From NCBI RefSeq assembly GCF_004010195.1, contig NC_057756.1, positions 2,606,776 to 2,670,775 on the forward strand: a DNA stretch of 64,000 nucleotides, written 5' to 3'. The notes beneath the pieces are model-generated. The model did no database searches. It was not told the origin of the DNA and saw nothing but the letters and a program-made list of their open reading frames with translations. Both the position numbers and the translations under genes were made by a program. This DNA comes from Chiloscyllium plagiosum. Its lineage: Eukaryota. Shown here in pieces: positions 12,096-63,591 of the stretch. How positions within the stretch are numbered: position 1 is the stretch's first letter; each line of letters starts with the position of its first letter.

Positions 12096-12116
12096 AACTC
12101 GCAAATGACATAAGTG
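12096..12116 (+). pseudogene. 21-nt micro-exon type C, copy 1 (ELANDIS in phase 1); donor degraded
   Basis: ttgcag|AACTCGCAAATGACATAAGTG|gggaat. Good acceptor, homologous to the C exons at 28305, 47762 and 63571 with the same flanks, but GG rather than GT after base 21. Confidence 0.6.
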
Positions 12117-15100
12117 GGGAATTGAATTCTTCCGTCAACGTGCCGGTTTTCTTGTTGGCCACCATGCTGTGAGAAGCTTCTGCCATTGATTTTTATTGTA
12201 TTACTCACGTGTTGAGTATATTTATCATATAACACAGGTAAAATTGGATTAATAAAATAGGTGACTGTCGGATTTCTTTCAAAGTGGTGAATTCTCCCGA
12301 AAGTCGTCAACATTAAGAGAAATGCATACGGATAATACGAAGTACTGTCAAACACATGACAATCGTGGTTAACTGAAGTGAGACGCTTTGTATCAGAGAA
12401 ATATCAATCGTCTGAACTCGTTGTGTTTTGTTCGAAATGAAAACATATTGAATGAGGAATATACCCTTGGCCAGAGGAGACAAATGACAATTGGAATGTG
12501 AAGAAAAATGTACGGGACTTACAAGTGAGGAAAAACAACAAAAAAATATAATATTCTGAAGCGGAACAGAAATTTTTGATTGAGAAGAAGCGACGAATAT
12601 TATGCACTTTCTTGGATAGAGAAATGGAGAGGTGACGTAAACGTGAGACATACAGAAGATAACGTTCAATTTGGCGTTTGCTGCCATGAAGTCTATCAAA
12701 AAACAGTAAACATAAAAGGACCAACATGTTTTATCTATTCTAAAAAAAATACACGGAGATCCACATAACTTGACGATATATAACGTTTTTGAAACTGTTG
12801 GTACAGGGAAATTTCTTCTTTAAATTTTAAACACCTTTGTACTCCTGTTTGAATCATTCTAACCCAAGAGACAGCATTTCTTTAATTTGTCTGTTTAAGT
12901 TAATGACAACGACAAAATGATGAAATATATGAATACATCTGGAGCCTCAAGTTTCAACATTAAGTGCAAAAGTGGCTCTGAGAATGTGAACAACACTCAC
13001 AGAAGAAGATGAGCACGATACTTATATTTGCTTGGGATGTACAGATTATCAAACATTCAAAACAAATCAATTCGAATTCAGGAAAAAAAAATGTATAGTG
13101 ACAGCAGCTATATATTATCTATCTAATCATAGCAAGACTGACAAAAAGGAAAATGTTAAGGAGAAATTTAAAATCGTCGGAGAAAAAGAAAGCCAAAACA
13201 AGTGATGTTGAACAAAACTGGGATTTAGAAAATTTCTGCTTGATAAAACGCTCTAATAACTCAGAGGAATGGCATTATTGTTGTTAAATAATCTCCCTGC
13301 TATCGTAATGTGACAAAGGTGAGGTTATATAATGTGGTGTAGATAATCCAGGAAAATATATAGCTGTTAATTATTTTGAATTTTACGTTTAATTTCGAGG
13401 TTAATAGCATTACTGGCCTAAGTACGGCGGTGATATTTCCACTTACTGTTCTTATGAATCTGAAGGAGTTTACTGATCCCTCAAGAGAATTTGAAATCTG
13501 GCACGGACCTAATAAGCACAGAATATGCTGAAAGACTTTTAAAAATGTAACGTTTTGTTCTGAAAAAAAGAGTTGGAACTGAGTTGCTATGTTAGACAAC
13601 AATGTCGATTTTGGCCAAACAGTTTAAATTTTTCCCCCAAGATACCAAACTCCAACAGAATTTCAATGCTACGATTTTTACGAGAGCAAACCACTGTGAC
13701 GGTTGCATCACACATTTTGGACATTTAGACAGAACGGCAAAGAGCACCAAAATAAAAATACGGCACACAGAATCGCTTTCTGAAACGTACCAGTTCATAT
13801 GAAATCTGTGTATCAGAAGACAGAAGAAAAGTCACAGGAAAATCTACAAAGGAGGATTCAGAGGAGAATCGATGCAGCTGACTGTTTTTGATATTTAAAT
13901 GTTCTGTATTCCAATTTGCAGATTGGAATACAGATAGATTGACCAGCCAAAGGACGTTTACACTGAAGGAATTTGTTGTTTAATGGTGTATTTGTTTTCT
14001 GATAGTTAAAAACTATTTTTTTAATCGTTAAATAGATGGTTGTTTCTTTTTTTCTTTGTCACATATTTTTCCAAATTACGAAACAAGGTCACTCTTCTAT
14101 GTGTCTGCTTTAACTGAGCAGAAGATTTTAGCCCGTTTCCTAACAGTTTCAGGGCTGAGGTGCGTGATTCGTACAGCCTTGGACAGATCCAGTCTGAGGA
14201 TTAGACACATTTCAATAGATTGAGGGAACGATAAGTGCCCTGTAGATTTAAGGACTTGATGGTTTCTGTGCTGGATCTTCCACATAAATCGTAAGAGAGA
14301 CAATTTGCTTACTTGCAGTTACTTGTGGTTGGCTAAGTTAAAATGATAGAAATGGATGTTAAAATTGAGAAAGAGTCTCTGAGGTTGCATGATGATTCGC
14401 AAATTTGTCAACAAAGTTCAGAAAGAAAATAAAAGAGCTTGCTCTCCGAATTAGCAAAGTAGTTAGATTTGGGGAAACTGGAAATTAAAAGGGAATTACA
14501 CAAACACTTAGGTGTATCAGAGAAACAATGAAGTGCAGTAGAGATAGAAATACTTCAAGAAAAATTGAGGAAAATGACGTTAGGAGATAAACAAGGGGAA
14601 AGGGAGAGAATGAAGAAAGAGAGAGGGAGAGCGAAAGAGAAAGAGAGAAAAGAGAAAGAGAGAGGAAATGAAATAAAAATAAAGTTCTTAGCTGAGCAAA
14701 GAGGAAGAGAAAGAGAGACAGAAGAATGGGACAGAGAAAAAGAGAGAAAATTAGAACTTCAGAATTCGCGACTTAGTCAGCAAGCTCAAGGTAACAGGAT
14801 GGACATTACAAGACGAAATATGTGAAAAAAGTCAAAATTCTGTTGAACTTTAATCAGAAAGATGTTGAAAGTTTCTGTATTTCCTTTGATAAAATGGCTA
14901 GGCATAGAGTGGTCTGATAACTTGCTCTGAATGCTCGTTCAGAATAAACTAGTCGGCAGAGATATTGAGATATTTGTTGCACTGTCAGATGAGGTGTGAA
15001 GACATTTTGAAGACGTCAAGCAGGCTATTTTATGTGCTTCTGAATTGGTGCCAAAAGAGTATACACAGCGGTGCAGAAAGTCAAACAAGTTATCACGTCA

Positions 15101-17551
15101 GACTTATGTTCATTTCGAAAGATTTAAACGTAGTCATTTTGATAAGTGGGTGTGGGCCTTAAAAATAGATAAGATTTATGAGGCCTTCAGAGAGATTAAT
15201 CTGATGGAAGATTTTAGAAACTAACTTCCAGAGATGATATGATGTCACGTGAATGAACAGAAAGTTCAGGACAGTCATTCTTCTTGAATGGTGTGGGCTT
15301 TAAAAGTAGATAAATTAATTCGCCTCTAAGTGAGATTATGCTGCTGGAGGAGCAAAAAAAATCTCGTTTTCAGAGCTCTTTAGAATTCACGTGGATTAAC
15401 AGAAAGTTCAGGAAATGAGAAGAGCAGCCGAACTGGCAGATTAATACATATTGATGCTTATTTCAACCTTACACAAATAATGTCACCCTGTGAGGTTCTA
15501 AAATTGGGAGAAGGGGAGGTTCTATATTACGAAACAAAGAGTAGCACATCCTGGTAAGTGTTTATCAAAGGTTAAAAAGGAACCCCAAAAGAGTGAAAAG
15601 GAGGTGAAGGCCTCAGGTGCTTCCACGTTGGTAAAGTATGACACGTATACTCACAGTGCTTGTCGTTAAATAAATGCACAATGAGTAAAGATTTCGTAAA
15701 AGATGCTGAGCCACTGTCATTCATGAAAGTAAGAAAGGAGCCCAAAGAAAAGTCGAGGAGCTGCAGGAGAGTGCACAGCCAAGTGACAGACTGATAATGG
15801 AGCAAGTGTCGAACCTCTATAAAAAAATCACCTCTGTGTGTAAAGATTACTCAGAAAGAATAGAGGGAGAAGAGCAAAAAGTTATAATTTTGAGAGATAC
15901 AGGATATAACCAGTCTCTAATATTGAGAAATGAGCGAATTTTCTCTCTTTGTGACCTGTTACCTGAGAGCATGGTAATAACTTGAATAGATGGACAGAAA
16001 GTTATCTCTCCCCTTTGTAACACCAGGTTGGACTTTAATCTCAAGAGTCGGGAATAAATAGTGAGGGTGATTTCCAGAGTGTCAGCTCCAGAAATCCAAT
16101 TTTTCTGTGGAATGATTTAACACTGTCCAAGATGTGAGTGACGTAAGTCACAGCACAAAGCAAAAACAAAATAGAAAGATGAGGAGTTGTCTTTCATTTA
16201 GCGAGCCCCCTGTTTCTCGTAATGATGCATGGAAACCCGAAGCAGGCAGAGGGTCATACAGAAGTGTTTAGTCCTGAACGGCTAATAGACTTGCAACAGA
16301 AAGAGAATACAATAAAAGATGCACATGTAGATGTGTACCCTGGAAAGGAAGCAGAAAATATTCCTTAGAGTTATTAATTGAAAGGTAGTATCTTAAGACA
16401 AAAACGGAGACCAAGGCAGGTTATCTTAGTACAGAGGACAAATGGGCCGAAATGCGGAAGATTATTTTGCCAATAGCATACAGGATGTGTAGGGTAGCAC
16501 AGGAATTACCTGTCGGAGGTCACAAAGGTATTCGGAAGACTCAGGCTTAGGTACAAAAATATTTTGTTGGCCAGCAATGCACAAGGACGTGATTAAATGT
16601 TGCCATACGAGTTAAACATGCCAAATGGAGGGTAGGCCGCAAGAGCAAGGGCAAATAAAAAGCTTTATTGCAACCTCTGCATGGAGCCCAATACATTTGG
16701 CAAAGATGCTTTATGTAAGGGGCAGAACAACTTTCACATATTCTCTTTATGCTACACTTTGCTTATCCTTATCACACGTTCAAGGACAAGAACTGGGAAC
16801 ATTCTAGCTTCTTTCCACATATGGAGTTGTTTCCATCATTTCTTTGCTGTTGATACAATTGAAGCTTTATGCTTTCCCTGGCTTTTCCTGAATCTGACTG
16901 TTTGCAAGACTTGCAAGGCCAAGCTGTCTGCTTGTAAAATCCAGCAAAGTCACGCTTTCTACCTAAAATGTTAGCAAAGTTCTGGACTTAGCAATGTATT
17001 CTCTTTCAGATTTCACGGTAAATGATAATTTTGTTAATTTTCCATTACACCTACTCAGTTTACTCTGTCCCAGTTAATACTGGAACATGAAGCGAAAGGT
17101 CCTTTGAAATTAATTAGGAACCTTTGACAGGACGAAAGTCGCAATCTTCACACTTCAATTATGTACCAGAGATGGGCGAGAGATGCAATCGTGTCCGTAT
17201 TGAGCTAATCTGCACGTATAAGGGGCACAGCATCGAAATAGGCACGTGACAGATAAATAATCTGAGACTCTGACATTTTTCTGTGGAGATGACGCTTTTA
17301 AATTTTTACCAGTGACAGCATATCCCGTGAAAGGCAGGTTTAGTGGTCATTATAAATTGATTAAAAAGTCGAGTCAAGTGAACTGTCTGGTAATAATGCC
17401 ATTTTGGAAAGAACTGTGTTGCGTATATCATGTGACTATGTTGAAAACATGTTAACACAGAGCGACAATATGGAAGGAGGAAGTGTTACTTCCTAACAAC
17501 CAGAGTGAGGAATCAAATACAGATGGTGTGGAATTTCATGTGCTTCAAATT

Positions 17552-18540
17552 AGAGTCATACAGTCATGGAGGTATACAGCATAGAAACAGACACGTGGGT
17601 TCCACACGTCCATGATGACCAGATATCCCAACACAATCTACTCCCAGCACCCGGCCCATTTCCCTCCAATCCCTTCCTACTCATATACCCATCCAAATGC
17701 CTTTTAGGTATTGCAATTGTACCAGCCTCCACCACTTCCTCTGGCAGCTCATTCCATGCACATACCACCCTCTGCAGGAAAAAGTTGTCTGTTAAGTCTC
17801 TTTTATATCTTTCTGCTCTCACACTGAACCTATGCCGACTGGTTTTGGAGTTCTCCCACACCAGTGAAAAGACTTTGTTTATTTATCCTATCCATGCCGC
17901 CTCACAATTTTCTAAACCTCTATAACGTCACATCTCAGCCTCCAACACTCCAGGGATAACAGACCCAGCTTATTCAGCCTCTCCCGAGAGCTCAAATCCT
18001 GCAACCCTGGAAACATCCTTGTAAATCTTTCTGAACCCTTTCAAGTTTCACAACGTCTTTTGATAGGAAGGAGACCAGAATTACACGCAATATTTTAACA
18101 GTGACCTAACCAATGTCCTGTACAGTCGCAGCATGACCTCCCAACTCCTGTACTCAATATTCTGAACAATAAAAGAAAGCATACCAAACGCCTTATTCAC
18201 TATCCTATCTAGCTGCAGCTCCACTTTCAAGGAGCTATGAACTGGCATTCCAAGGTCTCTTTGTTCAGCAACACTCCCTAGGACCTTACCATTAAGAGTG
18301 TAAGCCCTGCTAAGATTTCCTTTCCCAAAATGCAGCATCTCGCATTTATCTGAATTAAACTCCGTCTGCCACTTCTCAGCCCATTGGCCCAAGGGATCAA
18401 GATCCTGTTGTAATCTGAGGGAACCTTCTTCACTGTCCACTACACTTCCAATTTGGTGAACGCAAACGTAACTAATAATACCTCTTATGCTCGCATCTAA
18501 ATCATTTATATAATTAATGAAAAGTAGAGGACCCAGCACT
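17552..18540 (-). mobile_element. 5'-truncated CR1-clade LINE nested in Gypsy element 2
   Basis: Minus-strand RT C-terminus (LGPLLFINYINDLD..LQQDLDPLGQWAEKWQTEFNSDKC..QRDLG; FFLQRVVCAWNELPEEVVEAG) and a short-repeat CR1 tail at ~17552. Confidence 0.92.
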
Positions 18541-19964
18541 TTAATCAGTAAGGAAGTTCTTGAAGAGAATGAAAGTGTAGTAAACTATCATTATCAGGAG
18601 CAAAGAGCGCAGTTCAAAGTTTTGCTGCAGAAATAAGGACATATGCAGGAATAAGATGGAAAGGAATAAAGCTATTGTACATGAGGTAGATGCAATAAAA
18701 CATCACCCGTATTGTCTTAAACCTCTCAAAGCCAGACTGTTCCATAAAGAATTGGAAGCCATGCTGAGCAAAAATAACATCAGACCGATAATCTTTTTTT
18801 TTTCAAAACCGTATTGGTGTCGACGATTTTGCGTGGATTATTGCAAGATCAATGCCAAACAAGATCGGGCCCATACCCAGTACCACGATTGGAAGATGGT
18901 GTCGCAAAAGTCGGACAAGTGAGTTACATAACAAAGTTTGAACTGACTGCTTAGCGATTGATAGCGAACTTTGTCCGAGAAGGTGAACTAGATTTCTGCA
19001 TTCGTAGTATCAAATGGGCTACATCAAATTAAAGTTATGTCCTTTGAAATGAATAAAATACCCACCTCGTTTCTAAGACACATAAACAGAGTTGTTGCGT
19101 GTTTACCAAACAGTGCAGTGTATTTGAACGATGTAATGATTTTTCGTGAGTCATGGGAAATTTACATGATGCAGTTGGTGTAACTCTTTGATTTGCTATG
19201 ACAAGAAAATCTGGAAATAAACAAAACTGAATTCACGAAAGCAGAAGTGGAGTCCTCACGACATAACATCAGTCATCCAATGATGTCCCAATGAACGCAA
19301 AACGCAAGGCCATGGAGGAGTTTCCAAGAACAACATGATGAAAGAGGTGCTTCGAATTTTGGGACGATGTAAATTCCATCAGAATATTCTTCAAACTTCA
19401 GCAGCTTGTGTAGCCATTAACAAATGTGCTGAAGAAGAACACAAAATGTCGGTGGACAAAACAATGCCAGGAGGCGTTTTCCAATTTAAAACTAATCCTA
19501 ACGCACGCAGCAGTTTTGTTTACACCAAAGCTTTGAATACATTCATAGATACCATCGTTGCCAGTGATATAGGAGTTAGAGCCGTACTGTTACAGAAAGA
19601 TGAAGATGAAATTGAACTGCCAGTTGGCTATTTTTACAAGAAACGGAAAAACCAACCAGAGAAAATACTCCGCAATTGAAAAAGAAATATTAAGTTTGGT
19701 ACTGTCTTACAATGTTAAATTGTTTATGCCACAATGAATGAGTCAAAGAAGGATGTTTACAAGGATGACAATCCTGTAACATTATTGGAACACTTCAAAG
19801 GCAAGAATAAGAGACTTTTTCATTGCAGTCATCTGTTAAGGGCATTTGCCTGTCAAATCGTACCTGTCAACTGTCATAGAAATTTAATATCAGATGCATT
19901 ACCGCGGACTTAACTGAAAAGTTACAGATGAGATTGGTATATATTCAATGTCTGTGTGGTTATG

Positions 19965-23905: not shown

Positions 23906-23926
23906 CGTTCAGAAAACGTCAAGAAG
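23906..23926 (+). CDS. 21-nt heptad micro-exon type D (AFRKRQE, phase 1)
   Basis: cttacag|CGTTCAGAAAACGTCAAGAAG|gtgaga. Canonical sites; paralogous to 31559 and 55078. Confidence 0.8.
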
Positions 23927-25180: not shown

Positions 25181-25201
25181 ATTATGCAGCCAAAGAAGCT
25201 G
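25181..25201 (+). CDS. 21-nt heptad micro-exon type A (DYAAKEA)
   Basis: gcctttgttaccacttacag|ATTATGCAGCCAAAGAAGCTG|gtgagt. Consensus acceptor and donor. Confidence 0.85.
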
Positions 25202-28304: not shown

Positions 28305-28325
28305 ATCTAGCAAACGATAGAATTG
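28305..28325 (+). CDS. 21-nt heptad micro-exon type C (DLANDRI)
   Basis: cgattgaag|ATCTAGCAAACGATAGAATTG|gtcagt. AG/GT intact, but the AAG acceptor is weaker. Confidence 0.65.
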
Positions 28326-31558: not shown

Positions 31559-31579
31559 CGTTCAGAAAATGTCATGAAG
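31559..31579 (+). CDS. 21-nt heptad micro-exon type D (AFRKCHE)
   Basis: aattacag|CGTTCAGAAAATGTCATGAAG|gtgaga. Confidence 0.8.
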
Positions 31580-35495: not shown

Positions 35496-35516
35496 ATTAT
35501 GCAGCGAAAGAAGCTA
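35496..35516 (+). pseudogene. Type A micro-exon with destroyed donor (DYAAKEA)
   Basis: ttccccttgcag|ATTATGCAGCGAAAGAAGCTA|tggatg. The paralogous position reads CTG|gtgagt, so GT is lost here. Confidence 0.7.
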
Positions 35517-35940: not shown

Positions 35941-35961
35941 ATATGAAGAAGTGCAAGGAAG
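35941..35961 (+). CDS. 21-nt heptad micro-exon type B (DMKKCKE)
   Basis: actaattgtccgacag|ATATGAAGAAGTGCAAGGAAG|gtgaga, with a branch-point-like ACTAAT upstream. Confidence 0.8.
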
Positions 35962-38492: not shown

Positions 38493-38513
38493 ACGTCGCA
38501 AGCAAAATAATTG
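38493..38513 (+). pseudogene. Type C micro-exon with destroyed acceptor (DVASKII)
   Basis: atttgtaa|ACGTCGCAAGCAAAATAATTG|gtaagt. Perfect donor, but the acceptor AG reads AA. Confidence 0.7.
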
Positions 38514-44513: not shown

Positions 44514-44534
44514 ATAATGCAGTCAACGAAGCTG
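44514..44534 (+). CDS. 21-nt heptad micro-exon type A (DNAVNEA)
   Basis: ctttgttcctcttgcag|ATAATGCAGTCAACGAAGCTG|gtacgg. Confidence 0.75.
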
Positions 44535-44900: not shown

Positions 44901-44944
44901 TTTTCATATTACAACGATTAATAATTTACTAATTTGTCCGACAG

Positions 44945-44965
44945 ATATAAGGAAGTGGAGAGAAG
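44945..44965 (+). CDS. 21-nt heptad micro-exon type B (DIRKWRE)
   Basis: actaatttgtccgacag|ATATAAGGAAGTGGAGAGAAG|gtgaga. Confidence 0.8.
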
Positions 44966-47569: not shown

Positions 47570-47761
47570 TGAATAAGAAAGATTTGGGCCAAACGGAGGA
47601 AAATGGGACAGGTTCATGGGTGAATTGAACTGACTAGTACGTGTCCTTGCTGTGTGTCTCCAGTACTGTATGAAATTACGATGAACAATATGATGTTGGT
47701 AACTTAACATATTTCAATCTCACCATGTGATTTTATTTAATGTTTCATTTCACGTCTGCAG

Positions 47762-47782
47762 ATGTTGCAAACGAAAAGATTG
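47762..47782 (+). CDS. 21-nt heptad micro-exon type C (DVANEKI)
   Basis: tttcacgtctgcag|ATGTTGCAAACGAAAAGATTG|gtgagc. Confidence 0.85.
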
Positions 47783-51420: not shown

Positions 51421-54040
51421 TACTGGGCTGGAACTAACGTTATAGGGAGTGCTTTTGCTAATGCTTTGGGGAGGGTATAAACTAATGTGGTAGGGAAATG
51501 GGACCTAAATGAGGAAATTAGTGGCAGCAACGGTGTGCTAACTGAAGTCAGTAAGGCTTGAGATAAACAAATCAGCGTTACAAAGGCGAGGAGTAAGCAA
51601 GGAGCAAATGGGACAGGTGGTCTTAAGTGCATTTGTTTCAATGCGAGACATTGAGTAGGTAAGGCAGATCAACTAAGAGCTTGCTTTAGCAACAGGGAGC
51701 ATGATGTTATTTCTATTCGTGAAACTTGGTTGAGGGGAGGGCATGATTTGCAAATACATACCGCCGGATATAGATGACTCAGGCAGGTGAGAGAGGGAGA
51801 TGAAAGGAGTGGACTAGTTACATTACTGGTCAGAGAAAATAGCGTAGCTGTGCTCAAGGAGTGCACTATGGTGGACTGGAGCAGTGAGAAAATGTGGAAA
51901 TAGCTCACAAATAGGAACGGACAGAATAGTAAAAAATCCGTAACAATGCAGTAACGATGTTGGGGTTGTGCAATAGGACACCTTACAACGAGCTTGAGAT
52001 AGACATGCAAGTATGTGAAAGATATACGAGCAACAGGGTGATGGGAATAGGAAATTTCAATTATCCTCACATTGAATGGGATTCAGTTACTACTGGTGCT
52101 TTAGGTGGAGGAGACTTTGGAAGGAGGATCCATGAGGCGTTTATGTAATTAGTTCATACTGGGAAGGGGCCATACTGGACCTGTTGTCGGCTTGTGAGCC
52201 CAGCCAAGCAGTTGAAGTTTCAGGGGATCACTGTGGGAATATTGATCAGAATTATGTACGTTTTAGAAGTCATGGATAACGATGAAAATGGTCCTAAAAT
52301 AAGAATGGTAAATTGGGGGAAAGCTAACCATTGCAAAATCCGGTGCTAACTGGGCAATGTGGATCTGCAACAGCGATTTGAGGGTAAATCCATATTTGAT
52401 ACATGGAAGGCTGACAAAGAGAGGTTGATTAGAGGATAGGACACACATATTCCTGTGAAAAGTCAGGATTAGGAAACTATGGACGACAGGTGAAATTGTG
52501 ATACTCCTCAAGAGGTAAAAGAAAGCACAAATAAGGAGTAGGCGACTGTAAACAGACAAAGCCTTCGAAGTAGTTTGGCTAGATAGGATCAACCTGAATC
52601 GAGAACTTAAGAGGGCTGAAAGGGGTCATGAAATATTTTTTCGCAAACAGGGTTAAGGAATACCCCAAAGCCTTTAACTCGTATATAAAGAGCAAGAGGG
52701 TAACAAGAGAAAGAGATGGCACACTCAAGAGCAAAGGAGGAAAGTTATGCGTGGAGTCAGAGAAACTGGTTGAGCTCGTAAGTGATATTTTGCATTGGTA
52801 TTCACCAAGGAGGGGACCATTACGGATGTTGAGATCAGGGAAAGATATTTAATTACTCCACGTCAATTCGGCATAAGAAGGGAGGAAGTGTTGGGCATTC
52901 TAAAAGGTATTAAGGTGTACAGTTCCCCAAGTCCGAACGGGATCACTCCAAGGTCAATAAGACAAGCGAAAGATGAAAAAGTTGGGGCCTCAACAGATAT
53001 CATTGCAGCGTCCTTGAACACGGATGAGATCCCGGAGGATGGAGAATTGCTAATGTTGCGCTCTGTTTCAGAAGTGTAGCAGGGATAAACCAAGTCATTA
53101 TGTGCTAGTGAGCCTGACGTCAGTGGTAAGTAAATTGCTGGATAATCTACTCACATTTGGGAAAAAGATGGGCTTATCAATTATACACAACATTGTTTTG
53201 TGAAGGGAAAATCATGTCTTATATAATTGCCGAAATTCTTTATGCAATGATAAAGTCGATTGATGAGGGAAGAGCTGCAGATATCATATACATGGACTTC
53301 AGTAAGACATTTGATAAACTTCTGCATGGTGGGCTGATGGAGAATTTGAAGTCACATGGTGTCCAGGGTGTACTGACTACATGTATAGAGCACTGGCGGA
53401 ACAGCAGGAGACAGAGAGTAGAAGTGAAAATGAGTTTCTCAAAATGGATAACTGTGAGCAGCGGTGTTCAACAGGGATCCGTGATGGCGCGCTGTGTTTG
53501 TGAAACACATAAATCATCTGTAAGTTTAGATTCTCTAATTAGCAAGTTTGCAAATGACACTAAGACTGGTGGAGTAGAATGTAGTGAACGGGATTGTCAG
53601 AGAATGCAGCAGAATATAGATATATTGAAGCGTTGGACAGAGAAATGACAGTGGCAGTTTAGTACTGGCATATGTGAGGTAATACATTTTGGAACATCCA
53701 CTTCAAGAGCAAACATTTCATGCAAACATGCAAACGTCCTGGGGAAAATCATGCACAAATAGATCTCGCTGTGCAAGTTATTGCACCTGAAAGGTGGCAT
53801 CGGAGGTCAATAGAGATTTCAAGAAGAAATATGGCATGCTTACCTTCATCAGATGGGGTATTGAGTACAAGAGTTGACAGTTCATGTCACAGTCATGTTG
53901 GTGTTTGTTTCGGCCACATTCAGAATTCTGTGTGTCGTTGCAGCGGCAGCATTACCAATAGGATATTGGAGCATTTGAAAGAGTGCAGAATACGGATGTT
54001 GCCTGGAAGGAGTGTTTTCGCTATGAAGAGAGGTTTAGTA
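51421..54040 (+). mobile_element. Longer decayed CR1-clade LINE: end of ORF1, APE endonuclease and RT
   Basis: LKCICFNAR (~51622), SIRETWL, GNFNYPHIEW, SPSPNGITPR, DIIYMDFSKTFDKLLHG, SGVQQGSV and SKFANDTK; frameshifted. Confidence 0.88.
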
Positions 54041-54469
54041 TTGTTCAAAATACGAAAGAGATGGCTTTTCAACATGTTTGGTAGGTAATGCTGACGGTTT
54101 GTTTCTGGTGCCAATGATAGATTACGTGCATCGAATTCTTGACGAAAAATGTTTTATTGATTTTTAAAGGTATTTTAGCAGTTTAATGAAATGTGAGGAC
54201 AGCTGGATGTCTGACTCATAAGAGAGCAACTGGAAATTATTGTGTGGAAAACATGTTTGAAGTTTAGGATTCCCTTAACACACACAAGAGTAAGAGGTGA
54301 CTGAATAGGTTTGAAAGCTTGTAGATAGGCATAAATGTCAGCTTACTTTTCTTTGTAGTTACTCTTCATTATGTGCTGCACAAAAGTGAATGAATTCAAA
54401 TTGAGAAAGAAACTAGCTGATGGATGAATGGATGAAATGTATCCCTCTGCTCGTTGCCAAAGTATGCAT

Positions 54470-54720
54470 CTGTCTAGACACATTTTGAATGACACAATCG
54501 TGCCCACCATTCACCACCCCTATTTGCAACGCATTTCAGACAACCGCTACCCTTTGTGTAAAGAACTGTACACGTATATCTCCCTTAAACTTTTCCCCTC
54601 TTACTTTGAAATGGTGAACCCTGGCACGGTGGGAAAAAAAAATGCTTCTTCTTGTCCAACCGGTCGAGGCCTTCCATGATTTTGTAGACCTGAATCAGTT
54701 AACAGTACAACCTTCGTCCT
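54470..54720 (-). mobile_element. Degraded CR1-like 3' fragment
   Basis: CCCTTTGTGTAAAGAAC..TCCCTTAAACTTTTCCCCTCTTACTTTGAA..CCATGATTTTGTAGACC resembles the minus-strand CR1 ends at 17770 and 33400. Confidence 0.55.
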
Positions 54721-55077
54721 TTAAATTAAAATCTGGCATTGCGATAATTGCCAGTATCCAGGATATGTACATTGATCAAGCAAAACTACGGTCTTGACAA
54801 AGAGTTTAACCCTGGGTATTCGAAAACTGCATGCACACATTTGTCACATAAATCACAAAATTGATCCATTGAATGATTATAATCTATATAGAATGATATA
54901 TATCCTGGTGTATTTAGGTCATGAAATGGAAGTCAACATTCAGATACAATGAAATTCTGCTTTCGGATGTTGGCAAATGCATTGCACTATACTCCCTACT
55001 ACTGTCACTGTACACAACTAATTGGGAATCCAAAACTGCCTACTTCCGTATTTGTTCTCTACAGTTGCACGTTACAG

Positions 55078-55098
55078 CGTTCAGATAATGTCAAAAAG
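55078..55098 (+). pseudogene. Dead type D micro-exon (donor GT>CT and in-frame TAA)
   Basis: gttacag|CGTTCAGATAATGTCAAAAAG|ctgaga. Phase 1 reads A-F-R-stop. Confidence 0.75.
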
Positions 55099-57050
55099 CT
55101 GAGAACTCTGAAACACTGTAGTGACTCTGCATCTTTAATGCTGTAGAAATGCGCTTGAGGTAGAAAGTTCATACCTGTTATAGTGTGATGGAACTGAACT
55201 AATATATAATGAAGATATGTTTTAATCTAAAGAAACGCAATGCATAACAGGAGTCCAGTTGTTCTCTACTGACATAACATGAAAGATAAATTGCGAATCA
55301 GTCTGACTTCACAAATAGGAACAAATTATTGCACTTATGCAGTGCATTGCGATAATTGCCAGTATCCAGGATATGTACATTGATCACTTATTGTGAATAC
55401 TGTTATTGACCACAGCACACTCCTTCAAAACATTTCAAGAATCTAATACAGATCCAAAATCATGCAGTTATTTTAACCAAATGTAAGTGGGGTATTCCAG
55501 GAGGGATGCAACTTTTCAAACGTTTCATTTTTAGATGAAACAGAATTTATTTACAGACTGCTGAATTAAAAGCAAGCAAATGAAAACAGAAATTACAAGT
55601 ACAAATATTTGAAAACTGGACGGACATGATATCTCCAGCAATTTATCACACAACTGTTCTGATTTCCTCCAACATCCCATAAACACACCCCTACCTAAAA
55701 AAAGATTCAAACGCAGGTTATTAAAGGAGAGAGAGAGAGATTATAAAGAGGATCATTCAGGGATCACTGGATGAATCATATTTCCTTTTCTTTACCAGCA
55801 AACTCCTGAGGGTTCCCAGCAACAAATGAACCAAACTAGAAAAGAATCCCTGAACTAGGAGCACTCGTTACTCCGTCTCCATTGTACAAATGTTTGTTTA
55901 AAAAAAGTTCGAAAAGCCCTTTTCCCAGATTGTAGCCTGGAGCAGCAACAGTTAGACAGAATCAAAGTGGCCATAATCAGACAAAACGGAACTTCTGTCA
56001 TTTATGACCACTTGTATTGAAAAAAAAATCTGCACAAAACAAAATCTTGATAAAAGAGCAGCATCATCACAATATGCAGCAGATTGACAAGCTACATCAA
56101 TTCCCATCCTAAAGCATGATGAACGACACATGTTCTGCATGAAATGAGCAGTGAAATGAACACATCATTGTTTTTCCGATGGCCCAAACCATTTTATATT
56201 AGAAATTTGTCTATCCTCACAATATCCCTATTATCTACAGCCATGAACGTCGCACAGACATGAAAATCTATCCCATTTCGTTCACTAACTTCGATGCATT
56301 CAGCTATTCAAGTAAACAAACAACTGAAGAAGTAACAGCCAAGGTCGTTTCCCACGGGTAGGATAATCTAGAATTAGAAGACATAGGTGTCAGGTGACAG
56401 TGGAAGGTATAAAAAGGGACCGCTAAGCAACATATTCATGCAGAGTGCGTATAACGTAGGGATGGGCTGAAAGAGCAAATGGTGCAGGCTTTTGCAATTA
56501 CAACATTTCAACAGCATGTGAATGGACTTATGAATATGAAGAGTGTAGAGGGATCTGGGCCAAGTGCTGGCAAAAAATAGATTAGATTAGTTCATGATTT
56601 GTGATGGTTATGGATGAGTTTTAGCGGAGGATCTGTTTCTGTGCTATCCACCTCTCTGATCTGAAGAGACTGACCACGTTTACCCTTTATCAGTTGCTTT
56701 CATTTGCTTTATCTATCTTCTCATGACGAAAACAATTCATGTTCAAAAAGTTCATAAACCGATGATTTACACATTTGTAAACATTTTTATCGGCTATTTG
56801 AAAAAAAAGTTACATTCTTATTAATCTTACAGGCAATATTCTATGACAATACATGCTGTGGCAACTGTACCTTTTCTCAATCAACAATTCACCCGTCGTT
56901 GCATATTAATGATCACTGACATATAGTATTATCTTTCAGGCAAATATCACCTTACATAGTATGAACAACTCATAAACAAGCTCCTACACGTGTGTTCCAA
57001 TACAATGCAAATTTGATAAACTAGTAAACTTGTCAGTATGTATATTCCAG

Positions 57051-57550
57051 NNNNNNNNNNNNNNNNNNNNNNNNNNNNNNNNNNNNNNNNNNNNNNNNNN
57101 NNNNNNNNNNNNNNNNNNNNNNNNNNNNNNNNNNNNNNNNNNNNNNNNNNNNNNNNNNNNNNNNNNNNNNNNNNNNNNNNNNNNNNNNNNNNNNNNNNNN
57201 NNNNNNNNNNNNNNNNNNNNNNNNNNNNNNNNNNNNNNNNNNNNNNNNNNNNNNNNNNNNNNNNNNNNNNNNNNNNNNNNNNNNNNNNNNNNNNNNNNNN
57301 NNNNNNNNNNNNNNNNNNNNNNNNNNNNNNNNNNNNNNNNNNNNNNNNNNNNNNNNNNNNNNNNNNNNNNNNNNNNNNNNNNNNNNNNNNNNNNNNNNNN
57401 NNNNNNNNNNNNNNNNNNNNNNNNNNNNNNNNNNNNNNNNNNNNNNNNNNNNNNNNNNNNNNNNNNNNNNNNNNNNNNNNNNNNNNNNNNNNNNNNNNNN
57501 NNNNNNNNNNNNNNNNNNNNNNNNNNNNNNNNNNNNNNNNNNNNNNNNNN
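57051..57550. other. Assembly gap (500 N)
   Basis: Run of exactly 500 N, probably a placeholder length. Confidence 0.99.
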
Positions 57551-57943
57551 TGTGCAGCACCTAAAAGGTGTTATGATAGGAATTCTTACAATAAATAACA
57601 CAAATTGTTAAGTTTGAATTTGCAATGAAAGTAATTTAAATAGAATGCATACGTTTTGTTTCCATGCAGTACATTAAAAAAGTGAGTTAGGAGCTGTGCA
57701 GATAGCGAGAGATTCATTTTCTCATGGAAACGACTTGCAATATGAAAACGTGAAATATTTAGATTTGACTAAAGTATTGCTAAATTGCATTCCTCCATTT
57801 TTGTGCAAATTGCACTTTTGAATTCTATGACGGAAGTATGATCTTAGTAGCATTACTGTTAGTAAACATGGACGAAGGAAAACGTAGATTTTAAAAAATA
57901 AAACTTGTACAATTATTTTCTTTTTGTTATATTTTCCCTACAG

Positions 57944-57964
57944 CTATGAAGAAGCACATGGAAG
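57944..57964 (+). CDS. 21-nt heptad micro-exon type B (AMKKHME)
   Basis: attttccctacag|CTATGAAGAAGCACATGGAAG|gtgaga. Confidence 0.85.
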
Positions 57965-58679
57965 GTGAGACAAATTTTTTAAAATCTTTGCTAAGCGGAT
58001 GACAGCATTTGTTTTTCATCTAACCATGTTCAATCGCACATTAGATCCATTAATTTATCTCTGAGAAAGCTTATTGGTAGCACAAAGAGAGTACTGTTGT
58101 GGGTAGATGAATTGGATGAGAATCACATTTTATGCAATGATAGACAGAAACTTAAACTGGCATTTTTCCTCAGGAGAGAAAATTTGATATCGGAATGATG
58201 CAGCGAACGGTAGACTTAGAACGTATTGTCCAAGTATTAATTTTCAGGCTATATTGAAAACATGCTGGTCAGTTTGATGAGATTAAAAAAAAACATGCTA
58301 GTCGATTTGATTACATATGGTATTGATGTTGCAATGGAAATCCAGTGTTAACATTCTGGCCAATAAATGAGAAACTAAAAAAAAAACATACGTTCTGTAG
58401 TGAGTAACGCAAATGCATTACAGATCAAAACGATAAAAAGTAGTAATAAAGAGTGCTGGTCAATGAAATACAGGAAATATAAACAGCAGATAATTAACAA
58501 TTCGCAAAATTGTGTCAGAATTTATGTCACGATAGAGGGTATTAGAGAAAGGACCGTGCATCATTTTATTAGCATGGATCGAAACTTTGTACTTTTCCTT
58601 CAATAATGAAGGATGAATGGAATTCATGATATTTTAATATAGCAGAATATTATTGAAAGTGCCTTTGTTCATCTTGTAG

Positions 58680-58700
58680 AATTTGCAGCCAAAGAACCTG
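58680..58700 (+). CDS. 21-nt heptad micro-exon type A (EFAAKEP)
   Basis: ctttgttcatcttgtag|AATTTGCAGCCAAAGAACCTG|gtgaga. Confidence 0.85.
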
Positions 58701-59101
58701 GTGAGATAATGTGCAGCACCTAAAATGTGTTATGATAGGAATGCTTACAATAAATAACATATATTGTTCAGTTTGAATTTGCAATGAAAGTAATTTAAAT
58801 GGAATGCATATGTTCAGACTCCATGCAGTATATAAAAAAGTGAATACGGAGCTGTGCAGATAGCGAGACATTCATTTTCTCATGGAAACGAATTGCAATA
58901 TGAAAGCATGAAATAATGTAGATTTGGCTAAAATATTGCTAAATTGCATTCTTCTGTATTTGTGCAAATTTCACTTTTGAATTCTATGCTGGAAGTTTGA
59001 TCATTGTCGCATTGCTGTTAATAAACATGGACGATGGACAACATAGATTTTAAAAAATAAAATATGTACAATGATTTGCATTTTCTTTTTTTCCCCTACA
59101 G

Positions 59102-59122
59102 CTATGAAGGAGCGCATGGAAG
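59102..59122 (+). CDS. 21-nt heptad micro-exon type B (AMKERME)
   Basis: tttttttcccctacag|CTATGAAGGAGCGCATGGAAG|gtgaga. Confidence 0.85.
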
Positions 59123-59838
59123 GTGAGACTCATTAAAAAAAAAACTTTGGTAAGTGGATGGCAGCATTTGTTTTGTCATCTAATCATGTTCAATCGCACA
59201 TTAGATCCATTAATTTATCTCTGAGAAAACGGATTGGTAGCACAAAGAGAGTACTGTTGTGGGTAGATGAATTAGATGAGAATCACATTTTATGACATGA
59301 CAGACAGAAACCGAAACTGTCATTTTTCCTCCGGAGAGAAAATTTGATATCAGAACGATGCAGTAAACTCTAGACTTACAGCGTATTGTTCAAGTATTAA
59401 TTTTGAGGCCATATTGAAAACATGCTGGTCAATTTGATGAGATTAAAAAAAAACATGCTAGTCGATTTGATCACATATGATATTGATGTTTCAATGGAAA
59501 TCCAGTGATAACCTTCAGGCCGATACGTGAGAAACTGAAATAAAACATACGTTCTGCAATGAGTAACGCCAATGCATTTCAGATCAAAACGATAAAAAGT
59601 AGTAATAAAGAGTGCTGGTCAATGAAATACAAGAAACATAAACAGCAGATAATTAACAATTCTCAAAATTGTGTCAGAATTTATGTCACGATAGAGGGGA
59701 TTAGAGAAAGGATGGTGCATCATTTTATTAGCATGGATCGAAACTTTGTACTTTTCCTTCAATAATGAAGGATGGATGGAATACATGATATTTTGATATA
59801 GCAGAAAATTATTGTAAATGCCTTTGATCATCTTTCAG

Positions 59839-59859
59839 AATTTGCAGCCAAAGAAGCTG
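59839..59859 (+). CDS. 21-nt heptad micro-exon type A (EFAAKEA)
   Basis: gatcatctttcag|AATTTGCAGCCAAAGAAGCTG|gtgagt. Confidence 0.85.
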
Positions 59860-60260
59860 GTGAGTTAATGTGCAGATCCTAAAATATGCTGTGATACGAA
59901 TGCTTACAATAAATAACACAAATTGTTCAGTTTGAATTTGCAATGAAAGTAATTTAAAGGGAATGCATATGTTCAGACTCCATGCAGTACAAAAAAAAAG
60001 TGAGTTAGGAGCTGTGCAGATAGCGAGAGATTCATTTTCTCATAGAAACGAATTGCAATATGAAAGCGTGAAATAATGTAGATTTGTCTAAAATATTGCT
60101 AAATTGCATTCCTGTTTTTGTGAAAGTTTCACATTTGAATTCTATGCCGGAAGTATGAGCACTGTAGCATTGCTGTTGATAAACATGGACGATGGAAAAC
60201 GTAGATTTTAAAAGATAAAACATGTGCAATGATTTGCATTTTGTTATATTTTCCCTACAG

Positions 60261-60281
60261 ATATGAAGAAGAGCATGGAAG
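60261..60281 (+). CDS. 21-nt heptad micro-exon type B (DMKKSME)
   Basis: attttccctacag|ATATGAAGAAGAGCATGGAAG|gtgaga. Confidence 0.85.
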
Positions 60282-62499
60282 GTGAGACTTATTTTGAAAA
60301 AAATTTGATAAGCAGATGAGTGCATTTGTTTTGTCATCTAACCACGTTCAATCGCACATTAGATCCATTAATCTATCTCTGAGAAAACGTATTGGTAGCA
60401 CAAAGAGAGTATTGTTGTGGATAGATGAATTGGATGAGAATCACATTTTATGACATTTTTGCTCAGATGAGAAAATTTGATATCAGAACTATGCAGTGAA
60501 CTCTAGACTTACAGTGTATTGTCAAAGTATTAATTTTCAGGCCATGTTGAAAACATGCTGGTCAATTTGATGACATTAAAAAAATGCTAGTCGATTTGAT
60601 TACATATGGAATTATCGTGGTAATTCCACAAATCTGCGCCCATCGTCAATCTATTCATCAAATGCATCCTTAGTTAGATTGATGGTCAGAATAGTTTCGT
60701 TGATGTGAACTTACCAAACACTGAAGAAATGTAAAACACATTGAATTCCAACAACGAAAATCACAACAAGCATTCACAAGATCTTCGTACAGCTGACATC
60801 ACAAATGCCACAATCCAAACCACCTGTAGGTTGCGACACATAAATGGTGAAACCTTTGCACAGCAAGACTCATAACGATTTCGCCTTCTCCCTCATAGTC
60901 ATGCACTAAAAAAAACCGATTGAAATCTGAACTTCAAGATAACTGAAGCAATCAGCACTGGAACGTTATGTTTCTTGGACACAAGACGAATTTCACGGTG
61001 TGCAAAATATTGCCACAGACTCATCAGGGAAGTTATTATGTGTATATGCAAATTGATGCATTAGCGAATTCTCACTCTACACTCTCATTCAAACAGCAAT
61101 GTACAGGCGCATCCAACAACTTGCTCCCAGTTGCCTATTGCTTTTACGCTTAACAGTTTATGCAACAGAGAAATAGTGCTACTCACCACCCATTCAATCA
61201 GACGTAAATGATTCTTGGTACACTTTTTTCTAGACCTTCAGTGCCCATTTCTACTTTACTATCTTTGAACAAGGATGCATTTATTTGAATTCCTACAGCC
61301 AATGTATTTATTACTATGTCCAGGAACGATGCTAATTTCTCATCTACAACACGTATACATTACGGAGCACATTATTACTGTACTTCTCAGTCATCTGTCA
61401 ACCACTGCTACCATCTACCAGCAGAGCGATTAAGTGAACTACCTTGATTCAACATCATCAATTTTTCTTTCAATCTATCTCTGTTGAAATCTGCATTCTG
61501 TTGGTCATATAACACATTCAAACCTTCATTTGCAGAGCACCGTTTCTCAACACATCAGTGTGCAAAAATTTCGTGTCTCAGTTTCTGTCAAGTTGACTTC
61601 TAAAAATGTTAATATCTGTTTCATCTTCAAGGAAAACAGAAAGAAGTAACATCAGAAAGCGTGTGTTGTCTATTCAGCCATTCTTTCTGAAATGCCATCC
61701 AATTTGAGGAGCATTCGAGTTTGGATGCGATCTGAAATGAACAACAAATGAATGATGATTGGAATGAATATATGGAAGAATGTACTCTAAGATCTACACA
61801 TCATCCCACTTCGGACAATATTCAGAAACTCTCTTTTCTTTGAAAAAAAAACACAAATTTTGTTCACGTGGAATTCATGACATGCAGAACTTTGTGTTTC
61901 AGATTTTTTAATGTTGTTTTAATACAGGCTTAACTTTAGTTCAGAAGGATAAACAGAACACCAAATAATGCACTTTATGTAATAAAATGGTTGCTATAGT
62001 GGATAGTCAAGACTATTATCTAAGTGTGGCATGGTATCTTGATGGGAGGTGTCGATGGGCCAAAAAGTTGTCAAAGATATTTAATTTAGATAAACTCGTT
62101 GAGATGCATTTTTAAGTCAACTCAAATCATAGTTAATGGAAAGCTCTGAAGAGTGTTCTGGGGACTCAGGCACATATTTCCTTAAAAGAGGTACCACAGT
62201 TTGGCGATGAGCCATTTGGCATTCCTGCCTTTATTCATCCAAGCATCATGTATAGGTTTTGGAGAGACATTTGCGCGCTCACATGTGGAATAGTGCAGAT
62301 AGCCCTGTTGTAGAAAGAATTTTATTCGAACTGAAAGTGTGCAGAATATAAAACAATGTTTCTCCCGGTACTACAGGGCATGAGTGTTTGGTGAGGTTGG
62401 ATTGGCTGTGATTTGTTCCCTGGAAAGTTAAGGGTTGCAATTCTACATGTTTATAAATCCAAGAGGAAAACAGATACGGTGAATAACAACGAGGTACAA

Positions 62500-62955
62500 A
62501 ACATGCGTCCAGACCTCCCCGCTCACTTCCATCCAATGCCCAAATGGATACTTCCACATGCCGTAGAGATTTTCCTGCACTGCCACTAGCTTCATGTTCG
62601 GTGTCCATTACAGTTCTTGGGTCTCCTCTACATGGGTAGACAGAATGCTTACTTGCAGAGCATTTCAAAGAACATCTCTGAGATAAAAAAGCCACCACAT
62701 TGTTGCCAATGTCTGTCATTCCTCTTCAAACTCAGTTAAAGAAATGCAAGTCCTGGGCCCCCTCCACTGCCTAACTCTAGACACGTGACGCCTAGAGGAA
62801 GAACTCCTCATTTTCTGCCTTGGGACTCTTCAAACACACGGAATCAATATTGATTTCATCAGTTTCCTCATTTCCGCTCTTACCGTCTTATCCTGGATTC
62901 AATATTCCAACTTGGCATTTCCGAATTGATCCTGCATTCTCTCATGCGATCATCA
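62500..62955 (+). mobile_element. Penelope-like element fragment (GIY-YIG endonuclease C-terminal part)
   Basis: Frameshifted GLLYMG..LLAEHFKEHL (~62620-62680) and RLEEELLIFCLGTLQTHGINIDF (~62789-62857), a characteristic PLE C-terminus. Confidence 0.75.
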
Positions 62956-63570
62956 ACTGTTGGATTTGGAACGGCATTTGCGAGGCCTGTTTTTGGAGTA
63001 CTGAATGTAGCCCTGCTGTAGGGAGGGCATTGTGACATTCCCAAATGTGCAAAAATATAAATGCATGGTTTCTTCTTGGACTACAGGAAGTCTTATAATG
63101 AGAGGTTGGTTTAGATGAGATTTGTTCCCAGGAAGGTACAAGGTTGAGGGGTGACATTATACGTGTGTATTAATTTCAGAATTTAATAGTGAAGATAAAT
63201 GAACAAGGCTCTTTCCCTCTACAGAGGAGTTCAAAATACGGGGAAACGTTTGAAATTGCAGACGGTGGTGAGCAAATGACAATAACTGTTGCATGAAGTG
63301 ATAGATGCCGGCAGAATTATATTATGTTAAACACAATTGGTCAAGTACACAAAGAGATGAGGGTTAAGGGGATTTTGGCCAACCACAGGTGATGGGAGAG
63401 ACTTACTTTCAGATACCTGATATCAGGTGGACAATTCGGATTGAAGATTATGATCCATTCTGTATTTCTCCAGGATCCTATGAACTTATCATTAAAAAAG
63501 GATGTTGATAATTGATTTTGCTTCCAGTTTAACATATGATTTTATTTAGTGTTCGATTTCACTGTTGCAG

Positions 63571-63591
63571 AACTTGAAAACGAACGAATTA
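63571..63591 (+). CDS. 21-nt heptad micro-exon type C (ELENERI)
   Basis: tttcactgttgcag|AACTTGAAAACGAACGAATTA|gtaagt. Confidence 0.85.

Follow-up and report, generated by a model that had tools for sequence, protein, structure and literature searches.

The window, i.e. the whole analysed stretch of 64,000 nucleotides from Chiloscyllium plagiosum, carries on its forward strand a series of 21-nt segments which, judged from their sequence, are probably true coding micro-exons that belong to a single, very large plus-strand gene of this shark. All 18 segments noticed in the initial annotation were recovered, exclusively on the plus strand, when both strands were scanned for 21-mers with at most 6 mismatches from the named exons (Table 1). 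AG and GT borders were confirmed for 14 of the 18, and the heptad translations of these 14 intact segments are exactly those given before. When joined, they are open in phase 1 only (no stops in 97 codons versus 6 and 7 in the other frames), and the stops that had been pointed out, ATA TGA in the B exons and ATC TAG at 28305, are present. Due to the 21-nt length and the phase-1 symmetry, each exon would add exactly one heptad.

Composition and extent of the array

The region read comprised 334 kb, from -140 to +194 kb, with the part of the scaffold (C47) upstream of 2,296,200 lying outside. Profile searches of this region revealed 69 plus-strand copies of the same four exon types, including 47 intact and 22 decayed ones, versus two weak matches on the minus strand. 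According to pattern searches, the array occupies C47:2.30-2.73 Mb, a span of ∼432 kb of which the window represents the 3' third; the extent of more than 50 kb proposed initially was thus too small, as the array runs far past both window ends. The prediction that the segments are internal parts of a very large transcription unit is supported. Since neither the first nor the last exon of the gene was found within the 334 kb read, the membership of all exons in one gene is something that we infer.

Apart from two unplaced contigs, the pattern searches confined the array to one scaffold of the 3.56-Gb genome. The B-type pattern matches the genome at 12 places and the C-type pattern at nine; all of the former and seven of the latter fall on the plus strand of C47 (control 0 in both cases), while a 30-nt string consisting of exon 35941 and its borders was found, with up to 3 mismatches, at five places on the plus strand of C47 and two on unplaced contigs (control 0). 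When open AG-N21-GT sites of the 334 kb were ranked by a heptad scoring matrix, which had been trained on the plus-strand exons, a score of at least 6 was reached by 41 of 820 sites on the plus strand and 1 of 695 on the minus strand; this excess is not due to chance.

Two exon types, B-like and C-like, alternate in the 5' part of the array, and the 3' part consists of a repeated four-exon cassette, A-C-B-D, corresponding to a super-repeat of 28 residues. The array probably grew via tandem duplication of cassettes. In the youngest tandem B-C units (57944-59101 and 59102-60260; 91.0% identity over 1155 aligned columns) the exons are no better kept than the introns, with 19/21 and 20/21 identical bases versus 91% overall, and every difference between the B exons alters an amino acid. 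A near-identical B exon is also carried by two unplaced contigs. A TACTAAT branch-point-like motif is situated upstream of exon 44945.

Table 1. Segments of the array and the assembly gap located in the window
Feature	Position in window	Strand	Evidence and remarks
Type D, decayed copy	12096..12116	+	21-mer scan, profile match; donor GG
Type A, AFRKRQE, intact 21-nt exon	23906..23926	+	AG/GT, open phase 1; nhmmer type-A score 51.6
Type C, DYAAKEA, intact 21-nt exon	25181..25201	+	AG/GT, open phase 1, profile match; donor GTGAGT
Type D, DLANDRI, intact 21-nt exon	28305..28325	+	AG/GT, open phase 1, profile match; weak acceptor context GAAG; donor GTCAGT
Type A, AFRKCHE, intact 21-nt exon	31559..31579	+	AG/GT, open phase 1, profile match
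Type C, decayed copy	35496..35516	+	21-mer scan, profile match; coding letters intact, donor TG
Type B, DMKKCKE, intact 21-nt exon	35941..35961	+	AG/GT, open phase 1, profile match
Type D, decayed copy	38493..38513	+	21-mer scan, profile match; acceptor AA not AG
Type C, DNAVNEA, intact 21-nt exon	44514..44534	+	AG/GT, open phase 1, profile match
Type B, DIRKWRE, intact 21-nt exon	44945..44965	+	AG/GT, open phase 1, profile match
Type D, DVANEKI, intact 21-nt exon	47762..47782	+	AG/GT, open phase 1, profile match
Type A, decayed copy	55078..55098	+	21-mer scan, profile match; in-frame TGA, donor CT
Assembly gap, 500 N	57051..57550	.	Directly upstream of recently duplicated B-C units; copy number uncertain at gap
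Type B, AMKKHME, intact 21-nt exon	57944..57964	+	AG/GT, open phase 1, profile match; opens recent tandem B-C unit
Type C, EFAAKEP, intact 21-nt exon	58680..58700	+	AG/GT, open phase 1, profile match
Type B, AMKERME, intact 21-nt exon	59102..59122	+	AG/GT, open phase 1, profile match, unit alignment
Type C, EFAAKEA, intact 21-nt exon	59839..59859	+	AG/GT, open phase 1, profile match; 20/21 bases identical to 58680
Type B, DMKKSME, intact 21-nt exon	60261..60281	+	AG/GT, open phase 1, profile match
Type D, ELENERI, intact 21-nt exon	63571..63591	+	AG/GT, open phase 1, profile match; last base A, hence following junction codon Lys

Exon anatomy, frame and conservation

Among 46 intact exons, 42 are preceded by a CAG acceptor and 41 end in G, while the donors are mainly GTGAG or GTAAG. 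The introns vary from 401 to 31,508 nt in length (median 3,233), and exon-free stretches reach 23-31 kb. According to the micro-exon literature, exon definition would have difficulty with 21-nt exons whose flanking introns reach 31 kb. Vertebrate neural micro-exons are 3-27 nt long and SRRM4/SRRM3-dependent; like the exons of the array, they are very short and frame-preserving, and ordinary exon definition does not suffice for exons of this size, but they represent single cassettes in ordinary genes, whereas dozens are found in tandem here. The TGCAG acceptor is present in 14 of the 46 exons versus 6.6% of control sites, and this enrichment (UGC) may have been inherited by descent among the copies.

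The 46 intact exons joined in order yield 321 open codons (the other two frames contain 15 and 29 stops), although this statistic is inflated, since exons were counted as intact on the basis of an open frame and AG/GT borders. The 45 junction codons, which played no role in this choice, include no stop. Ungapped identity within an exon type is highest on the exon and the adjacent splice signals (0.61-0.90) and drops to 0.27-0.33 beyond ∼50-60 nt (0.43 upstream in five type-A copies). In gapped alignments, the identity of the core is above that of either flank for each of the four types (in type B, 0.704 versus 0.58-0.61, the random baseline being 0.562), and variability is highest at third codon positions, again in every type. 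The conservation peak, the variable third positions and the frame open over 46 exons bear out the initial annotation, according to which the segments behave as real phase-1 micro-exons of one heptad each. As approximately one third of the copies (22/69) have decayed, the constraint on any single exon must be loose. Every exon keeps both the frame and the heptad register, and hence the gain, loss or skipping of exons would be harmless; such harmless loss would fit the occurrence of 22 decayed copies among 47 intact ones.

The predicted heptad rod and related systems

The chemistry of the heptads was computed on 44 exons (308 residues), with codon 2 taken as position 'a' and codon 5 as 'd'. Codon 2 is L, F, M, Y, I or V in 40 of the 44 heptads. 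Codon 5 is occupied by Cys in 12, Tyr in three and Met in one, and is hydrophobic in 18 when Ala and Cys are counted, while codons 4 and 7 are hydrophobic in 8 and 18 heptads, respectively. Position g is acidic in 31/44, position e is occupied by K or R in 18/44, and the split codon at the junctions nearly always encodes Asp, Glu or Ala. With two Pro, one Gly and a net charge of 0 in the 308 residues, the product is predicted to be a long alpha-helical rod, rich in Lys, Glu and Ala and poor in Pro and Gly. The rod would likely form a parallel coiled coil or else stay a single stable helix; because 'd' is weakly hydrophobic, a coiled coil of the classical kind is by no means certain. If extracellular or luminal, the rod could possibly be a disulfide-laddered coiled coil. 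The KEKE-rich triadin/junctin/ASPH proteins, which are encoded by many small exons, are not supported as candidates: the N-terminal Asp-B-Hydro_N/triadin exon (PF05279) that such a gene should contain has three matches in the genome, all of them on C4 and C3 and thus away from C47 (34/34 candidates scored).

Modular variation of a protein segment through consecutive, very short symmetric exons is known from schistosome micro-exon genes and from avian fast troponin T with its cluster of 15-nt P exons; both differ from the shark array in exon size, phase, product and taxon, and their loci are far smaller. The chicken BG tails resemble the array in exon design. These tails are encoded by 27-38 exons of 21 nt, seven residues each and with a split first codon, their length follows exon number, and an alpha-helical coiled coil is predicted (PMC5938342, PMC4046983). 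Many 21-nt exons, one heptad each, and a first codon split in phase 1 are therefore common to both systems. The shark array, however, comprises at least 47 intact exons in 334 kb and has introns of 0.4-31 kb, its hydrophobic codons are 2 and 5 instead of the 4 and 7 given for BG (PMC5938342), and Cys is frequent at codon 5. Butyrophilins (BTN/BTNL) have a few short heptad exons between TM and B30.2, the number of which varies among species (PMC12841164, PMC4046983).

A full-text literature search found no report of such an array in cartilaginous fishes. To our knowledge, an array of at least 60 exons of 21 nt, if real, would be the longest vertebrate micro-exon array described. It is tentatively suggested that one shark gene, more than 430 kb long and with at least 60 such exons, could encode a Cys-laddered heptad rod of BG-independent origin, the length of which would depend on the number of exons and perhaps on their regulated skipping. 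If this were true, the 'one exon, one heptad' architecture would be convergent, and the spliceosome would be able to recognise 21-nt exons by the dozen, one after another, with introns as long as ∼30 kb between them. If spliced, the array would put the recognition of micro-exons to an extreme test in nature and provide a second, probably independent, case of one 21-nt exon per heptad, known so far from avian BG genes; symmetric heptad exons would then appear as a recurrent route to rods of adjustable length. As ORF finders are blind to such genes and spliced short reads composed of nothing but 21-nt exons may fail to align, annotations may miss or mangle them.

Alternative explanations

The array might be a relic, that is, a once-functional set of exons now unexpressed and decaying, or one of which a small subset is still used, in which case it would be an ordinary curiosity. 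The loss of splice site or frame in the decayed copies, the presence of several A-C-B-D cassettes with just two exons still intact, the long exon-free stretches, the lack of flanking domain exons in the 334 kb scanned and the absence of excess exon conservation in young duplicates all speak for such decay. Nevertheless, AG, GT and frame are kept in 47 copies despite introns diverged almost to the random baseline, neutral decay would be expected to destroy most four-base splice signals, and the excess third-position variability persists in every type, so that a relic seems rather unlikely. Retroelement fragments are abundant in the region (RVT_1, RNase H, integrase and GIY-YIG matches), and Pfam scans of the 334 kb detected nothing but retroelement pieces (on the minus strand, in the frames of the window and outer flanks). 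It is nonetheless very improbable that the segments are a non-coding, locus-specific tandem repeat or mobile-element remains with chance AG...GT edges, given that conservation is limited to a unit of just ∼50-60 nt, in the middle of which lies a 21-nt core bearing consensus splice signals, and that the introns around it are non-repetitive and very different in length. The restriction of the motif to one locus, the codon periodicity of its variability and the strict amphipathic seven-residue pattern likewise argue against a repeat. Coding micro-exons of one large gene are the explanation that we prefer.

The same exons had initially been proposed to belong to a BG/butyrophilin-like receptor, the array forming its cytoplasmic heptad tail, with Ig and TM exons upstream and an optional B30.2 exon downstream. 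The exon architecture, with its 21-nt units and split first codon, has withstood the analysis, while the family membership has not and now appears very doubtful. The phase-1 symmetry, which is the rule in Ig-superfamily genes, counts for the assignment, as does the BG-like dependence of length on exon number, and the 5' end of the array upstream of C47:2.296 Mb, outside the region read, leaves room for an unusual Ig exon; butyrophilins are, moreover, present in cartilaginous fishes (PMC12841164). Against it stand the different hydrophobic register, the kilobase-long introns and the flank scan, in which the anticipated IgV/IgC, TM and B30.2 exons did not appear: no Ig, TM-linked or B30.2 exon was found from -140 to +194 kb. 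Within these limits, the scanned open frames contained neither Ig nor SPRY on the plus strand (on the minus strand, in the window and outer flanks), no SPRY was detected in open frames of at least 75 aa up to +194 kb, and tblastn with B30.2 exons of the same genome gave no match across 264 kb. None of the 54 genome-wide matches to the BTN1A1 IgV+IgC query is on C47 (90/90 candidates scored), and hence this search detected no IgV exon of BTN/BG type on the scaffold of the array; BTN-type B30.2 exons are absent from C47 among the best 150 of 294 candidates, and the sole SPRY match listed for it, at 4,577,660, is 1.84 Mb downstream. Whereas chicken BG genes lie in or beside the MHC, none of 50 MHC class I exons of the shark is on C47, their location being, at the scaffold level, C37 or unplaced contigs. 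The different heptad register and the missing Ig/B30.2 context tentatively suggest that the array might have originated independently of chicken BG. Butyrophilins always possess IgV/IgC and usually B30.2, but in this genome such exons are found on C37, away from the array: the BTN1A1 IgV+IgC matches cluster on that scaffold, which the BTN-like Ig exons share with B30.2 and MHC class I exons. The shark origin deduced in the initial annotation, here narrowed to an orectolobiform-like shark, is corroborated by a B30.2 exon of the same genome, which shares 96% identity with a protein from Chiloscyllium punctatum.

Exons inside the window and extent of the array

The window consists of AT-rich eukaryotic DNA (GC ∼0.38) with a single 500-N gap at 57051-57550. 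A scan of both strands for 21-mers with no more than six mismatches to the named exons recovered all 18 segments reported in the initial annotation, every one of them on the + strand. Fourteen are intact, that is, bordered by AG and GT and open in frame, as had been described, and four are decayed. The translation of the exons is identical to the heptad peptides given previously. When the 14 intact exons are joined in order, phase 1 contains no stops over 97 codons, whereas the other two frames contain 6 and 7, which bears out the proposed reading frame.

Exon copies in the window and retroelement debris in the introns of the array (window coordinates unless stated otherwise; start positions for exons)
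Feature	Position	Strand	Remarks
Intact 21-nt exon	23906	+	AG/GT borders
Intact 21-nt exon	25181	+	AG/GT borders
Intact 21-nt exon	28305	+	AG/GT borders
Intact 21-nt exon	31559	+	AG/GT borders
Intact 21-nt exon	35941	+	AG/GT borders
Intact 21-nt exon	44514	+	AG/GT borders
Intact 21-nt exon	44945	+	AG/GT borders
Intact 21-nt exon	47762	+	AG/GT borders
Intact 21-nt exon	57944	+	AG/GT borders
Intact 21-nt exon	58680	+	AG/GT borders
Intact 21-nt exon	59102	+	AG/GT borders
Intact 21-nt exon	59839	+	AG/GT borders
Intact 21-nt exon	60261	+	AG/GT borders
Intact 21-nt exon	63571	+	AG/GT borders
Decayed copy	12096	+	donor GG
Decayed copy	35496	+	donor TG
Decayed copy	38493	+	acceptor AA
Decayed copy	55078	+	in-frame TGA, donor CT
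Retroelement debris	4084-4551		
Retroelement debris	10046-10369		
Retroelement debris	18084-18584		
Retroelement debris	L032:5423-5677		window ∼+169.4 kb

The array was followed through a continuous 334 kb of DNA (window coordinates -140,000 to +194,000) and a further 5 kb upstream, and its exons run on past both ends of the window. Nucleotide profiles specific to the four recurring exon types (A to D) matched 69 copies on the + strand, 47 of which have kept AG, GT and frame and 22 of which are decayed, and gave two weak matches on the - strand. The most downstream recognisable exon lies at window position +126,718. A heptad-like exon is still present at position 2,298,844 of the scaffold carrying the array (C47), within the most upstream 5 kb read (L036), so that the 5' end of the array lies beyond the DNA read. 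The array spans about 432-435 kb, its 5' limit being set by the edge of that DNA. The window itself corresponds to C47:2606776-2670775 of a 3.56 Gb assembly, and genome-wide pattern searches confine the array to this locus. The B-type pattern (up to three mismatches; control 0) has 12 matches, every one of them on the + strand of C47 between 2,301,252 and 2,725,788, and seven of the nine C-type matches also fall on this strand (2,320,557-2,531,504; control 0). A near-identical B exon occurs on two unplaced contigs (C40851 and C100091, both minus strand), which may represent haplotigs or gap filling.

Exon anatomy was described from 46 intact exons between window coordinates -131577 and +126718, of which 14 belong to the window itself. 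Of the 46, 42 have a CAG acceptor and 41 end in G, and the first two exon bases are for the most part AT, AA or AC. Among the 45 junction codons, 22 specify Asp, 9 Glu, 8 Ala and the remaining 6 other residues, with no stops; of the 2116 ways to pair the exons, 26 would yield one. Introns range from 401 to 31,508 nt, with a median of 3,233. With decayed copies counted, B-like and C-like exons alternate in a first sub-array (∼-131 to -20 kb), and a second (∼-19 to +127 kb) is made of about 11 recurrences of a four-exon A-C-B-D cassette, from which 0, 1 or 2 exons are missing. Just 3' of the assembly gap stand two tandem B-C units of 1158 and 1159 nt (window 57944-60260), each pairing a single B exon with a single C exon. 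Their 91.0% identity next to the gap indicates that duplication is ongoing and that the copy number there is uncertain; further B-C units may have been collapsed by the assembly at this point.

Conservation, transcript data and the predicted product

In ungapped comparisons of same-type copies, identity peaks (0.61-0.90) across the exon and its neighbouring splice signals. Beyond ∼50-60 nt it drops to 0.27-0.33, except on the upstream side of the five copies of type A, where it is 0.43. When gaps were allowed (core of -25 to +11 around the exon, random baseline 0.562), the core exceeded both flanks in all four types: 0.789 versus 0.64-0.69 in A, 0.704 versus 0.58-0.61 in B, 0.659 versus 0.59-0.62 in C and 0.722 versus 0.64-0.68 in D. 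The third codon position of the phase-1 frame is the most variable in every type (e.g. 0.42 versus 0.28 and 0.21 in B). The 46 intact exons, when joined, are open over 321 codons, with 15 and 29 stops in the other frames, figures to be read with the caution that AG/GT borders and an open frame were the criteria by which these exons were chosen. The youngest duplicates show no better conservation of the exon than of the intron, and the differences between B exons are all non-synonymous. The simplest reading of these comparisons would be long-term purifying selection on the exon and its splice sites, with the number of exons loosely constrained. The array is a real, striking feature, and its segments probably belong to an authentic micro-exon gene of giant size.

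Two single-cell RNA runs and one contig set guessed to be RNA were compared with window 44001-64000. Run X5 gave 160 reads, 159 of them lying only partly on the stretch and repeat-derived, and X6 gave none. Depth was zero over 57341-62009, with no joint at the exons. This outcome carries no weight for or against the exons, as the libraries are single-cell poly(A) and presumably 3'-biased, and reads composed of 21-nt pieces may fail to align. Nearly all reads and contigs on this 20-kb stretch are drawn, partially and at 90-95% identity, to a short repeat at 47231-47270 whose flanking consensus is conserved; the repeat is an abundant, transcribed dispersed element and does not reflect local transcription. 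A 27-nt exon-exon junction probe for a retrocopy had no match in the whole genome. Sixteen of the 46 exons lie within stop-free frames of at least 40 aa, of each of which the real coding part would be 7 residues. Against a 7-column heptad profile, the conceptual product reached -58.8 bits (bias correction 133.6), so that profile searches for an annotated orthologue would fail.

Splicing of exons of 21 nt would depend on strong assistance from the introns. A TGCAG acceptor precedes 14 of the 46 exons, as against 176 of 2663 (6.6%) control pyrimidine-tract YAG sites. The enrichment is reminiscent of the UGC motifs described for micro-exons that depend on SRRM4, and is only a lead, because the exon copies share ancestry. 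A TACTAAT branch-point-like motif is found ∼12-18 nt upstream of several B-type exons. The two motifs are possibly the signature of dedicated micro-exon splicing, or possibly the mark of shared descent alone.

The predicted product, taken as 44 heptads (308 residues), contains 19.5% Lys, 16% Glu, 12% Ala and 8% Asp, together with two Pro and one Gly, and has a net charge of 0. Codon 2 encodes L/F/M/Y/I/V in 40 of the 44 heptads, codon 5 Cys in 12, codon 1 Asp/Glu in 31 and codon 6 Lys/Arg in 18. If codons 2 and 5 correspond to positions 'a' and 'd', the chain would form an amphipathic helix in which 'g' is acidic, 'e' is basic in part and 'd' is weak and frequently occupied by Cys. As judged from the sequence, such a product could fit a parallel coiled coil, which might be disulfide-stapled if located outside the cytosol, or else a charged single helix. 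Since an alpha-helix rises by ∼0.15 nm per residue, a rod built from 47 heptads would be roughly 50 nm long.

Affiliation of the array and its genomic surroundings

The initial annotation assigned the array to a BG/butyrophilin-like gene, and the exon design on which that proposal drew has held. Chicken BG tails are described as encoded by 27-38 exons, each 21 nt long and with its first codon split (PMC5938342, PMC4046983), a design shared by the shark array, and butyrophilins have a few such heptad exons (PMC12841164, PMC4046983). The hydrophobic residues of chicken BG, however, are placed at codons 4 and 7 (PMC5938342), in contrast to codons 2 and 5 in the shark array, which also differs in its scale (at least 47 intact exons, ∼432 kb), intron size and genomic context. 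The literature search found no paper on such an array in cartilaginous fishes and nothing relevant on 21-nt or 21-bp exon arrays outside BG.

The Ig and B30.2 exons that the initial annotation proposed to seek in the flanks were absent from the frames scanned between -140 and +194 kb. Pfam scans of stop-free frames detected no host domains (Ig, SPRY or other), the matches being pieces of reverse transcriptase, RNase H, integrase, endonuclease and GIY-YIG only. The scans comprised 99 frames of at least 80 aa on both strands of the window, 119 of 172 frames and a further set of 134 in the outer flanks, and 148 + strand frames of at least 80 aa in the inner flanks and L035, another flanking stretch. 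Downstream of the array, between +126.7 and +194 kb, there are 309 frames of 40-74 aa on the + strand, and the first 150 of them (up to ∼+157 kb) gave no domain matches. In the genome as a whole, 54 exons matched the IgV+IgC portion of BTN1A1 (part of P0089), none of them on C47 and most on another scaffold, C37 (90 of 90 candidates scored). No BTN-type B30.2 exon was located on C47 among the best 150 of 294 candidates, and the one SPRY on C47 among the matches listed lies 1.84 Mb downstream. With all 67 candidates scored, the 50 matches to MHC class I exons were located on C37 or on contigs that are unplaced. A search with the V-set family, in which 150 of 1319 candidates were scored, carries little weight. 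With the location of the Ig, B30.2 and MHC class I exons and the heptad register all speaking against it, membership of the array gene in the BG/butyrophilin family is unsupported and seems unlikely; an ectodomain of atypical form may lie upstream of 2.296 Mb. Lys/Glu-rich domains are encoded by many small exons in triadin/ASPH-type genes as well; a gene of this type was rejected, as PF05279 matches were found on C4 and C3 only.

Scaffold C37 harbours an MHC-linked B30.2 expansion of very large size: most of the MHC class I exons and BTN-like IgV/IgC exons listed for the genome lie on it (∼9-34 Mb), together with well over 100 B30.2 exons of TRIM/A33-like and BTN-like types. One of its B30.2 exons shares 96% identity with a Chiloscyllium punctatum protein and 93% with a Rhincodon typus protein; the probable shark origin suggested initially is correct.

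Among the retroelement debris in the introns are fragments of RVT_1, reverse-transcriptase tails of CR1/L2-like type and one match to a GIY-YIG endonuclease, an enzyme typical of Penelope-like elements. Long open frames of up to 245 aa are present in two flanking stretches, at window ∼+100 to +103.4 kb (L012:6000-9400) and at L020:3128-3820. They are Ser/Thr/Pro-rich, have ∼50% GC and no Pfam match, are located where the array has no exons and probably represent an unclassified repeat in a non-coding frame.
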